Below are positions 44,444 to 58,211 of a DNA stretch of 64,000 bases, in pieces. Positions within the stretch are counted from its first letter, which is position 1. Each line of letters begins with the position of its first letter. The position numbers were made by a program, and so were the translations under genes. Source of the stretch: Candidatus Magasanikiibacteriota bacterium (GTDB lineage: Bacteria > Patescibacteriota > Patescibacteriia > Magasanikbacterales > GWA2-37-8); NCBI GenBank assembly GCA_036744835.1, contig DAIOHD010000001.1, forward strand, positions 611,910 to 675,909. The letters are read 5' to 3'. The notes beneath the pieces were generated by a model. That model had not been told where the DNA came from. It saw only the letters and a list, made by a program, of their open reading frames with translations, and made no database searches.

Positions 44444-44472
44444 TCCGCCCTTACGGGCAGATTTTTTCATGC
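44444..44472. terminator. Bidirectional-looking intrinsic terminator hairpin (CCGCCC-TTAC-GGGCAG) flanked by A/T runs
   Basis: A-run upstream and a T6 run downstream on the plus strand. Revcomp gives a U-tract for minus-strand transcripts reading in from the island side. Confidence 0.45.
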
Positions 44473-44782
44473 AGAGAGGGAGGGCCATTCGAAGTCGTCG
44501 TCCGCCAGTTGGCAGATTCCTCTTTGGAAAACCTTCGGGTTCTTCAACTCCTTTCCTCAGCGAGAGAAAACTCCCGTTTTCTCCCTTTCCCATTCGAATC
44601 CCTTTTCCTATCAAATTAAAAAATAAACAGGAATATTCCTATTTATTTTTCATGCGGTGTAGTCGGGTTAAGTACCCATAACTTCAATGTTTATAAGGGT
44701 ATTTTAGCACGAAAATAGCTATGCTGACCAGGCATATGGGTCGGGGTCTGGCTTTCAGAAAATGCGACAAATGCGACAGTAC

Positions 44783-45442
44783 TTAGAGCTTTTCAGGAGT
44801 ATTGGTAAAAGCAGTTAAATAAGGCCAAATTTTATAATTTCCAAGCACTTTTTGCGGGTCATAGATCTCGTACCATGGCGTCATGGAAAATGTATTCTCC
44901 TTGCCCTCTACTGGCATTGAGACGTATTTTAAAACTTCTTTAGGCGGTAATACGTTAACATTCTCTTTAATGAGAAAAACTTCAAAGCCTGTTTGTGGTA
45001 CAACTCGTGCCTTTAAAACGCCCTGCCGAACAAGTTTTCTTACTGTGGGCGATTTGAGTTTAAAATATGTATCAAATTCCCAGGTAGCATACCAATATTC
45101 GTCGTTATAACAAATCTTCCCAGGAATTACCTTCTTATTAACTGCGTCTTGGCAGGCAAGGCATTTTTTACCCCATTTGTCATACCAAAGTTGTTCATCT
45201 TTTATATAATTATGACAGATGCCACAGTTATAAGTTTTTCCGTCCATCAAGGAAAAACCCTTAGGAGAATCTTTCAATTTTTCTTTAAGTTTTTGTTCTT
45301 CAACATGCCCTTTTAATAAAATATCAAAAAGACCGACCAAGTTACGTCCAGCTTCTGCCGCTTCATCGTGAGTTAATTCTTTGCCATATTCTTTCTTGAA
45401 TATGTCCTGAAATTCCTTAATTGATTTTTCTGATAAAGACAT
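44783..45442 (-). CDS. Hypothetical Zn-finger protein (CGIC...CLAC)
   Basis: 'YNCGICHNYIKDEQLWYDKWGKKCLACQ' is a CxxC-x17-CxxC. No other motif. Confidence 0.45.
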   Translation of the reverse strand: MSLSEKSIKEFQDIFKKEYGKELTHDEAAEAGRNLVGLFDILLKGHVEEQKLKEKLKDSPKGFSLMDGKTYNCGICHNYIKDEQLWYDKWGKKCLACQDAVNKKVIPGKICYNDEYWYATWEFDTYFKLKSPTVRKLVRQGVLKARVVPQTGFEVFLIKENVNVLPPKEVLKYVSMPVEGKENTFSMTPWYEIYDPQKVLGNYKIWPYLTAFTNTPEKL

Positions 45443-45474
45443 TTTAGTAATAATTGTTTTATACCTTACTCAAT

Positions 45475-55755: not shown

Positions 55756-55790
55756 CAAAAATACACGATCGACTTGTGTATTTTTGTTTA

Positions 55791-57977
55791 TTAAAATCCA
55801 GATAACCCCTCTAACTTTTTGTAATGCATTGGATCAAGTATCTTAACCAACTGCAAAGCTTCTTGTATCCTTACATTCGCGTTCATTATTATTGATTCAT
55901 CCGTTGATTCTGTATCAGGAAATCCATGAGATCCATGATTTATAAATCTATACATTTCTAAATGATCAGCAGCGAAAGGGGTGGTCCATTTTTCAGTAAT
56001 CTTTTTAGCCTCTGCGTATGCAGATTCAAGAGTTGATTGAAGATCACCCGTTGTTGAAAATTTAAACTCAAGGAATGTTTCTAGCCATCGCCTCAATAAA
56101 TTAACTACTAAATGTGCATCCGCAGCATCGCAAGAATCTTTATGTTTCGCTAGTACATTAAAAACATAGTAATAATCCGATCTGTGATCTCGCAGCAATC
56201 TATTTATTGGTTTTATTGTAGATCCAGTATCTAATGCCTCAATGCTGCAAACATTGATTAACCCATCATCAATTTTTTTACGATAACCTTCTTTAAGGTG
56301 TCCTAGAAAATCTAAATTGTGCGTCAAAATAAAATATTGCCTAGTAGGATGTTTCTTAATTTCATTAACTATAATAGAAAAAATTTGGAATATTGACTGC
56401 TTGTCTAAACTTGAAACAGGATCATCAATAATAACAACTCCGTCATCTGATAGTTTATTCTGTGTATCATTAATAGAATAAATAAAGTACGCCAGTGCTA
56501 TAAAATTCTTTTCGCCCTCACTTAAGCTAGAAAAAACACAGTTAACCCCATCTCTTTTTAGTGCATATCCCTTACCATCATCAGCATCCGTAATTTCTAT
56601 TTTCCTATAAGGAAAAACTACTTTAAAAAGACGATTTAAAGCTTGTGCTGGTTCAAGCGTGTTTTTAACTTTCTGTTTTAATTCCTTAACTTGATTGTCT
56701 AAATTTGAAATCTCAAGTCCTATTGCGACTCTTTGCTTTACAGTATTATCATATGACTCTTTTTCTCGAGTATACTGCTCATATTGCTGGGCTACATAAT
56801 GCGCCTCTATTGAGTAGGCTATAGAAGTGGAGTCAGTCGGTGTTGGCTTAGATAATGGGGTTATTTTTTCTGTATCTAAAGAATATGTTTTCTTGGGAGT
56901 AGATACGGAAGCTCTTTTTTCCTTTAGAATTACAGCTAAAGAATCAAAAATCGATCTCACATGATCGATGTTTTGTTGTTGTATAGTAGAAAGAGAATCT
57001 AGTTTTGCGAAGCTAGTTGTATAACTATCAATATTTTTCAAAAATAAATCTATTGAATCTGTTACCTTAACAATTTCATTAGAAAAGTGTTTTATCAGTT
57101 CGTCGGTATTTTTAATATCAGAATCACAAAACAAACATTTGGTTAATGATTGTTCTTCGTTAAAATGCAAGCTTACACCTTGTTTAATCCAACTAGTTTG
57201 TAGCTCACTAAGATTATCTATTCTTTTTGAATGAACTTGAACAGGTTGTGACTCTAAAATTAGGTTAATGTCTGCAATATTATTTGTAATCCAATTAACT
57301 GCACTAGCTATTTCATTGTCATTTTTTGCTGATCTCTCTGTGTTCATTAATTGATTTTTTAAAGAATCAATATCCGAACGTATTAATTCAGAAGAACTTT
57401 TAATTTTACCGTCAGCAATCTTTTTGTTAATATCAGCTACTCTTTTTTCAAAATCAGTTTTTGAATAACTAGCATAAGTTCCTGCACCAACAAGTTCCTT
57501 TTTAATACTATTGATACCACCAACTTCTTTGATTACTACAGCTGTAGTACTAGCTATATCATCATGTTTTGTTGGGAGAATAATTTTATTATATTCATCC
57601 CTTTTTTCTTTTAATTTTTGTTCTTCGGTGTCGTAGCTTACAGCCTCCTTGCCAGCAAAAAATATATAAGGAATAGTTGAACTCTCTCGTAATGTTTCTT
57701 CAATATAATTCCCATTAAAAACTCTGACATTACCTTTTATTAAATTTAAATCACTATTTTCAGTAATTTGAGAAAGATCCGTTTTAATCTTAAATGTACA
57801 GTTTTTTTCGATTATTCCAGTTTCTAAACATCGCAAAACTTTCGAAAAAGTTGTTTTACCAGATCCATTCCAACCAAATAGAAGATTGATTCCATCAGAA
57901 AAATCACACAACGAAGAGTCCCATGAGTAATTATGGAACCTTGCATGATTGAGTTTTTCAATCTTTTGTATTTTCAT
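55791..57977 (-). CDS. RloC/PrrC-family (AAA_13) ATPase, candidate tRNA anticodon nuclease with Rad50-like CxxC zinc hook
   Basis: Walker A 'LFGWNGSGKTTFS'. A coiled-coil insert contains 'CLFC'. ABC signature 'LSEGEKNFIALAYFIY' then Walker B/D-loop 'VVIIDDPVSSLD'. The ~200-aa C-terminus has 'LRRWLETFLEFKF' and conserved His/Arg, consistent with the PrrC/RloC nuclease domain as I recall it. Confidence 0.6.
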   Translation of the reverse strand: MKIQKIEKLNHARFHNYSWDSSLCDFSDGINLLFGWNGSGKTTFSKVLRCLETGIIEKNCTFKIKTDLSQITENSDLNLIKGNVRVFNGNYIEETLRESSTIPYIFFAGKEAVSYDTEEQKLKEKRDEYNKIILPTKHDDIASTTAVVIKEVGGINSIKKELVGAGTYASYSKTDFEKRVADINKKIADGKIKSSSELIRSDIDSLKNQLMNTERSAKNDNEIASAVNWITNNIADINLILESQPVQVHSKRIDNLSELQTSWIKQGVSLHFNEEQSLTKCLFCDSDIKNTDELIKHFSNEIVKVTDSIDLFLKNIDSYTTSFAKLDSLSTIQQQNIDHVRSIFDSLAVILKEKRASVSTPKKTYSLDTEKITPLSKPTPTDSTSIAYSIEAHYVAQQYEQYTREKESYDNTVKQRVAIGLEISNLDNQVKELKQKVKNTLEPAQALNRLFKVVFPYRKIEITDADDGKGYALKRDGVNCVFSSLSEGEKNFIALAYFIYSINDTQNKLSDDGVVIIDDPVSSLDKQSIFQIFSIIVNEIKKHPTRQYFILTHNLDFLGHLKEGYRKKIDDGLINVCSIEALDTGSTIKPINRLLRDHRSDYYYVFNVLAKHKDSCDAADAHLVVNLLRRWLETFLEFKFSTTGDLQSTLESAYAEAKKITEKWTTPFAADHLEMYRFINHGSHGFPDTESTDESIIMNANVRIQEALQLVKILDPMHYKKLEGLSGF

Positions 57978-58116
57978 ACATAATTAGTTTATCACTTTTT
58001 TGAGTCTCTTAATAGATTAAAAACACGATTTTTATCGTGTTTTTAATATCAATCTATATACTCGGGTCGCACATTCGCCATGAGCGTATGGGTTGACTCC
58101 GATAAAAAATTGTCTT

Positions 58117-58211
58117 GGCGGAGAGGGAGGGATTCGAACCCTCGGTCCCGTCTTGAGAACGAGACAACACATTAGCAGTGTGCCGCTTTCGACCAACTCA
58201 GCCACCTCTCC
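58117..58211 (-). tRNA. tRNA-Ser (anticodon GCT), CCA encoded
   Basis: Revcomp 'GGAGAGGTGGCTGAGTTGGTCGAAAGCGGCACACTGCTAATGTG...long variable arm...GAGGGTTCGAATCCCTCCCTCTCCGCCA'. Anticodon loop CTGCTAA. Confidence 0.85.

Follow-up and report, generated by a model that had tools for sequence, protein, structure and literature searches.

Here we examine a 64,000-nucleotide stretch of a Magasanikbacteria chromosome (Candidatus Magasanikiibacteriota; contig DAIOHD010000001.1), referred to throughout as the window, in which roughly 13.6 kb separate an hsp20 gene (43912–44343) from a gene for an EngB-type GTPase (58268–58837). The right-hand edge of this island is an intact tRNA-Ser(GCT) gene on the minus strand (58116–58211; called by ARAGORN and scored at 61.8 bits by Rfam), whose 3′ end faces inward, and its left-hand edge is a degenerate direct copy of that 3′ end on the same strand (44471–44502). 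A sequence-only reading of the window had taken the region for an integrative island at tRNA-Ser, flanked by hsp20 and engB, bounded by a partial repeat of the tRNA 3′ end and equipped with its own recombinase. The repeat test and the comparative evidence support this proposal, and it is likely that positions ~44471–58115 form one integrative element, inserted by its own large serine recombinase (LSR) at the 3′ end of tRNA-Ser(GCT).

Genes and RNA of the island

Protein genes were annotated by profile searches with Pfam, PADLOC, PHROGs and NCBIfam, and RNAs with ARAGORN and Rfam. These searches confirm the gene content read earlier from the letters alone, namely a recombinase, a repressor, a ParB-methyltransferase, a helix-turn-helix (HTH) protein resembling small terminases (TerS-like), a nuclease and two defence-type ATPases. 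The LSR gene (54409–55755, plus strand; likely start 54430, giving 441 aa) encodes all three domains expected of such enzymes, Resolvase (PF00239, E 1.8e-17, residues 32–176), Recombinase (PF07508, E 1.3e-13) and Zn_ribbon_recom (PF13408, E 4.7e-10), together with the catalytic serine motif YARKST (within YARKSTESE). It matches PHROG 95 ‘integrase’ (E 2e-62), its closest relative in the PDB is SprA/YokA of SPbeta, and its best NCBIfam match is CcrB, at a score below threshold. No close relative was found among GenBank phages, where the best match has 27% identity. From its predicted domains and active-site motif we take the protein to be a bona fide LSR.

Upstream of the LSR gene lie the genes that recur in related elements. 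The repressor, of LexA/cI type with a winged HTH and an S24 peptidase domain, is encoded on the minus strand (50309–50950; PF00717 and PF01726; PHROG 4, transcriptional repressor), and the palindromic operators that had been noticed beside it are indeed present in the divergent intergenic region at 51008–51043, where TGTCAAT-N8-ATTGACA and TTGACAGTCAA are found. Two core genes of the element follow on the plus strand: one for a protein combining ParB_N with an N6/N4 DNA methyltransferase (51305–52633; Pfam, PHROG 498) and one for the TerS-like HTH protein (52635–53150; PF13022 below threshold, PHROGs 4044 and 4102, terminase small subunit). An SNase-fold protein is encoded on the minus strand (53020–54111; PF00565, E 8.6e-24; PADLOC ‘SNc+LTD’), with a likely start at 54051 that yields 343 aa, the length also called in the Logan assembly. 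Between this gene and the LSR gene, Rfam places a LOOT RNA (RF03000; 54129–54250, minus strand) at 83.1 bits against a gathering score of 46.4, covering model positions 1–121 and hence the full length of the model. The GC-rich patch at 54.05–54.4 kb, once read as a compositional signal, is actually this RNA gene, and a 72-aa open reading frame (ORF) that overlaps it on the plus strand (54052–54270) is probably spurious.

The remaining genes are cargo. The largest is an Avs4 anti-phage STAND NTPase, identified by PADLOC and NCBIfam and spread over two minus-strand ORFs (45475–50296 in all; 46448–50296 encoding 1282 aa and 45475–46572 encoding 365 aa), which correspond to PADLOC profile positions 1–1232 and 1229–1570 with 1809 bits; the NCBIfam equivalog NF041815 scores 1683.9 bits against a cut-off of 1500. 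The Avs4 reading frame is thus not single and intact: a frameshift divides it, the ORFs overlap by 125 nucleotides (nt), and the break is identical in an independent Logan assembly, leaving a pseudogene or else a variant in two pieces. Between the LSR gene and the tRNA, the cargo slot is filled by a gene for an AAA_13 ABC-type ATPase (55791–57977, minus strand; PF13166, E 1e-81), which PADLOC assigns to the defence candidate PDC-S06 (E 2e-96). It had been called RloC-like, a label that finds no support beyond the shared AAA_13 domain. When tested against RloC and PrrC, only the ATPase part matched, the PADLOC PrrC match being limited to residues 485–568 (E 5e-9), and there was no RloC or PrrC family among its NCBIfam matches. 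A 219-aa protein of unknown function (44783–45442, minus strand), without a match in any of the four profile collections, completes the cargo at the left end.

No capsid, portal, tail or large terminase (TerL) match was obtained with Pfam or PHROGs for any of the ten ORFs of the island, and neither a replication or primase module nor a candidate recombination directionality factor was recognized in it. Because it lacks virion genes and a large terminase, the 13.6-kb element is a degenerate prophage or a satellite-like element.

The two junctions and their arms

The plus strand from position 44471 reads GCAGAGAGGGAGGGCCATTCGAAGTCGTCGTCC. Gapped local alignment of this sequence with the plus-strand image of the tRNA (GCAGAGAGGGAGGG-CC-ATTCGAA against GCGGAGAGGGAGGG--ATTCGAA; 44471–44493) gives 21 matches in 23 positions with a 2-nt gap and a score of 30, so the repeat reported on this strand is real, although it begins one base later than first noted. 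The score is the top tRNA match in the whole window once tRNA genes are excluded, with a runner-up of 23 among 300-nt stretches, and it was equalled in 1 of 1000 shuffles of the 300-nt region, placing the similarity above chance. The oppositely oriented fragment that had been seen further in is also present, as TTCGAATCCCT at 44593–44603; part of it is trivial because TTCGAA is its own reverse complement.

The surroundings of the repeat resemble those of a native tRNA end. In relatives, whose contigs are designated here by L-numbers, the native tRNA-Ser(GCT) of L024, L025 and L027 ends in ...CTCTCCGCA(T/C), followed by a run of A and, directly after it, a terminator hairpin. The window repeat has the same layout, CCCTCCCTCTCTGCATG, then AAAAAA, then a hairpin at 44440–44465 (minus strand) that would be the native tRNA-Ser terminator, on the B′ side of attL. 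In L023, a relative with 89% Hsp20 identity, a block upstream of hsp20 repeats this order of repeat, A-run and hairpin, with compensatory changes in the hairpin. The intact tRNA-Ser of the window, for its part, is followed by CCAAGACAATTTTTTATCGG..., a sequence of element type and not the native layout.

To the right of the repeat some 300 nt (44493–44782) are homologous among the window, L023 and L002, and the AGAGAGGGAGGGC within the repeat is identical in the homologous blocks of the latter two. The conserved non-coding left arm proper (44503–44782) matches L002 at 11067–11390 and L023 at 1–230, and in L002 it recurs with different genes on both sides. From left to right it comprises a hairpin-rich stretch (44503–44592), an inverted T-arm-like TTCGAATCCCTTTTCC (44593–44608), a bidirectional terminator (44618–44650), ATGCGG..GGGTT (44652–44669), TAAGGGTATTTTAGCAC (44694–44710), GACC..GGGTC (44726–44748) and the direct repeat TGCGACAAATGCGACAG (44763–44779). 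A 23-nt motif at its inner end, AATGCGACAAATGCGACAGTACT (44760–44782), is identical at 132–154 of the LSR-bearing contig L055, ~85 nt inside the tRNA-like repeat of that contig, and looser copies of the left-arm motifs (ATGCGG-N-GGGTY, TAAGGGTATTYTAGCAC and GACC-N-GGTC) occur in L002, L044, L046 and L050.

The right arm (58060–58115), on the P′ side of attR, contains GGGTTGAC at 58090–58097 and CCGATAAAAAATTGTC adjoining the tRNA end. It shares 80–84% identity with the sequence beside tRNA-Ser(TGA) in the LSR-bearing contigs L032 and L033, and the tRNA-side element sequence of L038 is conserved with it as well. Both non-coding ends of the island thus belong to the LSR element family, and the 13.6 kb are best read as a single element. 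Two independent Logan contigs that are identical to the window elsewhere end at 58113 and 58119, one on each side of the tRNA/element junction; breaks within 3 nt of the junction are compatible with heterogeneity there without proving it.

The hairpin-rich stretch of the left arm (L023 ~95–180; L002 ~11100–11190) contains two hairpins that keep their pairing through several two-sided substitutions between genomes, and may represent a small RNA, a group of terminators or a structured site in the DNA. The left-end block was considered as a tRNA, a tmRNA or another known RNA and rejected, since ARAGORN and Rfam (even at E ≤ 10) returned nothing and manual cloverleaf and tmRNA-like pairings fail. 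The ATGCGG after the second terminator was likewise rejected as a second tRNA remnant, the motif being present also in the arm of L055, whose target is a tRNA-Asn. Scanning IMG/VR with the pattern GAGAGGGAGGG..TTCGAATCCCTTTTCC gave 0 matches, and a looser block pattern in JGI metagenomes gave 2 chance matches only. The 17-mer TGCGACAAATGCGACAG was found in 11 IMG/VR contigs, all of them unrelated except L055, and 6 of the 10 unrelated ones look coding at this position (readable as Cys-Asp-Lys-Cys-Asp).

The recombinase family and its elements

The association of this recombinase with tRNA genes extends well beyond the window. A family scan of IMG/VR viral contigs recovered 34 that encode relatives of the LSR at 43–84% identity. 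In 13 of these a tRNA gene lies 125–4657 nt past the LSR stop codon (12 detected by ARAGORN and one, cut at the contig end, by Rfam), and all 13 tRNAs are encoded on the strand opposite to the LSR gene and point their 3′ ends at it, often closing the contig. The window is arranged alike, with a distance of 2361 nt. The tRNAs concerned are Ser(TGA) in three cases, Gln in three, and Ser(GCT), a Ser-like species, Asp, Glu, Asn and Trp in one each, the tRNA cut at the contig end being unassigned; seven further loci, with less than 1.4 kb after the LSR gene, were not scorable. A GGTC motif is found 21–27 nt outside the tRNA end in 10 of the 13 tRNA-proximal junctions examined (binomial P 9e-15), and the window and L033 carry the variant G(G/A)GTTGAC. 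In four of the LSR contigs a second tRNA-like T-arm fragment or tRNA copy is seen 50–300 nt on the element side of the boundary tRNA (L041 15929–16310, L047 6466–6556, L057 5040–5185 and L062 13412–13575), which hints at tandem att sites or successive insertions.

The 12.3-kb contig L055 retains both ends of such an element, with tRNA-Asn at 12193–12265 and, at 23–49, a direct repeat that matches the 3′ end of this tRNA at 21 of 27 positions. Its core follows the order of the window (ParB-methyltransferase, TerS-like gene, LOOT, LSR), and its methyltransferase region has 75% nucleotide identity to that of the window, at the upper end of the 66–75% found with 11 LSR-bearing viral contigs. The TerS-like gene follows the methyltransferase gene in L032 also. 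In this contig, the closest relative, a TerL-like gene lies beside the LSR gene, so the element family may derive from true prophages. The conserved core of the family is a cI/LexA-like repressor, the ParB-methyltransferase, the TerS-like protein, LOOT with a variable downstream gene, and the LSR. Around this core the content changes. Between LSR and tRNA, L055 carries a double methyltransferase and a 498-aa gene and L033 an SF1 helicase-like gene; the variable genes of L032 are Type I restriction-modification (R-M) genes; and those of the window, in the slot next to the tRNA and in the left part of the element, are PDC-S06 and Avs4. Most genes in the variable slots are recognizable defence genes.

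LOOT, an RNA motif that reportedly goes back to Weinberg et al. in 2017, is present in the window and, of 25 LSR-bearing viral loci that were scanned, in nine: L032 (6278–6399), L035 (5315–5436), L038 (11340–11469), L041 (9711–9832), L044 (2426–2543), L045 (16354–16475), L046 (4850–4979), L052 (2076–2195) and L055 (5232–5345). In 7 of these 10 cases it is located between a 16-nt overlap with, and 70 nt upstream of, an ORF on the same strand. The ORFs so preceded vary, encoding SNase, a trypsin-like peptidase, an OB-fold tRNA_anti-like protein, a methyltransferase or unknown proteins. In four cases LOOT lies 159–186 nt upstream of the LSR gene and divergent from it. These positions suggest that LOOT serves the mobile elements as a leader or regulator. 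Its Rfam entry describes a metagenome-based sRNA of unknown function (PMC7779021), and our literature search found nothing specific on its function.

Matches to the LSR at E ≤ 1e-80 number at least 7982 among database proteins, and the best 120 have at least 82% identity. Sources among the best matches include Parcubacteria (94%), Colwellbacteria (90%), Nomurabacteria (89%) and another member of the Magasanikbacteria (84%), groups of the Candidate Phyla Radiation (CPR). EngB, by comparison, reaches only ~50–70% identity in non-conspecific CPR relatives. Because the identity of the LSR across CPR groups far exceeds that of EngB, the recombinase appears to have spread horizontally, and recently.

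The recurrence of this layout beside six species of tRNA, with a conserved motif at a constant distance from the end of the tRNA, and the homology of both window arms to the arms of LSR-bearing contigs bear directly on the question of which enzyme placed the island. A tyrosine integrase, since lost, might have inserted it at the tRNA, leaving the LSR as a passenger, be it the integrase of a nested or unrelated element, an invertase or a resolvase. Direct repeats of a tRNA 3′ end that start from the T-loop are a signature of tyrosine integrases, the LSR gene of the window is 2.4 kb from the tRNA junction and does not adjoin it, and a related contig (L025), in which no recombinase is visible, has a perfect repeat of 20 nt that ends in the T-loop; serine integrases, moreover, are ‘not known for targeting tRNA genes’ (PMC7192596). 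Set against the family-wide evidence, and with no tyrosine recombinase ORF or remnant between 44.4 and 58.2 kb, we consider a lost tyrosine integrase improbable, and the LSR remains the preferred agent of insertion.

Proposed insertion at the tRNA 3′ end

Homologues of EngB and Hsp20 place the host among the Candidatus Magasanikbacteria of the CPR. The host neighbourhood is conserved on the left, where the order hsp20, VanW, ClpP, DHH, SMC, S16, KH and TrmD is kept in relatives. The interval from hsp20 to the nearest tRNA-Ser(GCT) or engB has different content in each relative examined, and the gene order of the window is not shared. In the nearest relative by EngB (92% identity; L021 and L022), engB is directly followed by tRNA-Ser, inside which the contigs end. 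At 86% EngB identity, L002 has engB, a 127-aa ORF, a homologue of window 44472–44780 and then unrelated genes; no tRNA follows engB, and the contig ends 0.65 kb past the arm. A relative with 81% EngB identity has RecQ after engB. In relatives with 73–76% Hsp20 identity, tRNA-Ser(GCT) is found 0.1–2 kb upstream of hsp20 on the opposite strand, and the genes in between are variously an ABC ATPase plus one for 90 aa, one for 79 aa, or a NUDIX gene. Upstream of hsp20, the left-end block is missing in more distant relatives.

The pair L024 and L025 localizes this variability. Their Hsp20 proteins are identical and their sequences diverge exactly at the 3′ end of tRNA-Ser: in L024 a membrane-protein gene begins 75 nt from the tRNA end (region compared, 320–360), and in L025 a 187-nt segment lies between perfect 20-nt direct repeats, GTGCGGAGAGGCAGGGATTC (89–108 and 276–295), that end inside the T-loop. 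Because neighbouring content varies from relative to relative and this pair diverges at that very point, the tRNA-Ser(GCT) 3′ end is a variable, insertion-prone site in this clade. No recombinase gene is visible near the 187-nt insert of L025, which may be a miniature element or the remnant of one. A perfect palindrome at 1–70 of L027, which runs through the tRNA-Ser terminator and seems to join two converging tRNA 3′ ends, was treated as an assembly fold-back artefact and set aside.

From these comparisons we infer that the LSR catalysed the insertion, with crossover near the tRNA 3′ terminus, and that the element may still be mobile. The original order would have been engB, tRNA-Ser, terminator, hsp20, and the LSR would have integrated a circular form of the element at the tRNA-Ser(GCT) 3′ end. 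The resulting attR would consist of the host tRNA joined to the conserved arm (CCGATAAAAAATTGTC, with GGGTY ~25 nt out), and attL (44471–44502) of a tRNA-3′-end-like sequence belonging to the element, joined to the native tRNA terminator. This tRNA-like sequence is probably a recombinase half-site or arm that mimics the tRNA end and not a decaying scar, a reading in keeping with its preservation in three diverged copies. The point halfway between the GGTY motif of the element and the T-arm GAACC of the tRNA coincides, both in the window and in L055, with the tRNA 3′ terminus, which suggests a predicted site of ~46 bp centred on that terminus, with the universally conserved T-arm as one half-site. 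Use of the T-arm as a half-site would explain why relatives are found at different tRNAs.

The left end invites another interpretation, in which 44471–44608 is a structured, tRNA-derived small RNA or repeat of the host beside hsp20, unrelated to att function, and the 13.6 kb are a non-mobile variable defence region. The block of ~140 nt sits between two terminators and is kept in three genomes with near-invariant ends and a variable interior; the hairpins of the interior show compensatory changes in 17 of 73 predicted pairs, and the copy in L002 folds with z = −7.8. With three sequences only, this covariation is weak evidence, and no tRNA, tmRNA or known RNA was detected in the block by ARAGORN or Rfam. 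A host feature tied to hsp20 also sits poorly with L002, where both flanks of the block are unlike those of the window, with its absence upstream of hsp20 in distant relatives, and with the recurrence of the adjoining arm motifs in LSR-bearing viral contigs, of which L055 has an analogous repeat of another tRNA. We therefore regard a host RNA at this position as unlikely. That there was no insertion at all, the similarity being due to chance and the gene cluster ancestral to the lineage, would accord with the nearly host-like composition and the unrecovered empty site, yet it is scarcely credible given the significant repeat alignment, the different content between the flanks in each relative examined, and an LSR and methyltransferase whose identity to copies in viral contigs and distant CPR classes far exceeds that of housekeeping genes.

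Several observations weigh against an element inserted by its own LSR. In GC and k-mer composition the island is barely deviant (GC 0.344 against 0.337 for the host, with the tetranucleotide distance mildly raised), and composition, being nearly host-like, was dropped as evidence of foreign origin. Fourteen LSR loci with at least 2.1 kb downstream show no tRNA; either some members of the family do not target tRNAs or the contigs in question are not integrated elements. The exact empty site (engB, tRNA-Ser, terminator and hsp20 in the orientation of the window) was not found among the relatives’ contigs by exact-protein look-ups, in which the contig carrying a 99%-identical hsp20 reaches only 113 nt upstream. 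In the distant relatives L024, L025, L027 and L031 the tRNA-Ser(GCT) near hsp20 is encoded on the other strand, whereas in the window both share one; rearrangement has therefore affected the locus too, with an inversion that took in the tRNA locus in one lineage or the other. At the level of the site itself, dyad symmetry of the reconstructed attP matched 13 of 28 positions, a value equalled or exceeded in 370 of 500 shuffles, and we accordingly name no crossover dinucleotide. The spacing between TTCGAAT and CCCTCCCTCTC in the repeat is 2, 9 and 21 nt in the three homologous arms, a variation that sits awkwardly with a rigid half-site. In classic LSR sites the shared sequence is a central dinucleotide alone, and the usual shared repeat is 2–12 bp; the junction repeat here, at 23 nt, is longer. 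Finally, with a frameshifted Avs4, no TerL and an imperfect repeat, the copy looks old and may be immobile.

Three observations concern the wider neighbourhood. A 139-aa ORF without a family match (58850–59269, minus strand), between engB and an APH-like kinase gene, is missing in L002 (~9984–9993) and is a small strain-specific indel outside the island. The metagenome-assembled genome that contains L002 (CAYRYH010000020.1) is labelled ‘uncultured Gammaproteobacteria’; its genes are CPR/Magasanikbacteria-like, and it is probably mislabelled or mis-binned. Elsewhere in the window, tRNA-Ile and tRNA-Val come after a full-length 16S rRNA gene (32505–34378, minus strand), and no 23S rRNA match was obtained within the 64 kb, so the rRNA genes appear unlinked.

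Relation to known elements and significance

The element combines features of three kinds of system. With LSR prophages and elements such as SPbeta (SprA), SCCmec (CcrAB), phiC31, Bxb1 and A118 it shares the Resolvase, Recombinase and Zn-ribbon domains, the catalytic serine motif and a recombinase gene near one end, and, like SCCmec at rlmH, it occupies the 3′ end of a conserved host gene that is left intact; it differs from them in that tRNA genes are the targets and in the longer repeat common to its junctions. Islands flanked by tRNA genes are classically the work of tyrosine integrases. Those of the Islander/Williams type have, as here, one boundary formed by an intact tRNA and the opposite one by a partial direct repeat of the tRNA 3′ end, an integrase gene toward the tRNA end, variable cargo and hotspot behaviour in related strains. 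In such islands the integrase is a tyrosine recombinase whose attP contains a copy of the tRNA 3′ end, whereas the present island has no tyrosine integrase and its repeat is degenerate (21 of 23 with a 2-nt gap, as against 21 of 27 in L055), seemingly a conserved feature of the element and not a decaying one. Satellites of the phage-inducible chromosomal island (PICI) and P4 types are comparable in size (12–14 kb) and in possessing an integrase, a cI/LexA-like repressor and a TerS-like gene without virion genes; satellites and defence islands alike have swappable defence slots, here Avs4 and PDC-S06, in L055 and L032 R-M genes. Unlike those satellites, this element has no recognized replication or primase module, no known helper phage, and a CPR host.

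To our knowledge, the natural targets of serine integrases have been thought to avoid tRNA genes. In a 2020 survey, Mageeney et al. predicted tRNA use for 14 of 297 serine-integrase elements, a usage ‘not reported previously’ for which ‘experimental proof will be required’ (PMC7192596). Our literature search found no paper on serine-integrase elements of CPR bacteria at tRNAs, and nothing specific on serine-recombinase prophages in these organisms.

It is conceivable, though we would stop short of calling it probable, that a very abundant LSR clade found in many lineages of the CPR has adapted its attB recognition to the T-arm and acceptor end of tRNAs, occupying different species (Ser, Asp, Glu, Asn, Trp and Gln) with restoration of the gene, and that its elements are a main vehicle of defence genes in the CPR and the home of LOOT, which may act there as a leader or regulator of the variable slot. 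LOOT, an RNA without known function, in any case gains a concrete and testable genomic context inside LSR elements. Serine integrases are the main tools for inserting large DNA in genome engineering. If a large conserved clade does act at tRNA 3′ ends, it would supply many integrase/att pairs with predictable and universally present targets, and would offer a first handle for the genetic manipulation of CPR bacteria, for which very few tools exist. It would also show a route by which defence systems such as Avs4, R-M and PDC-S06 pass between the reduced genomes of these organisms.

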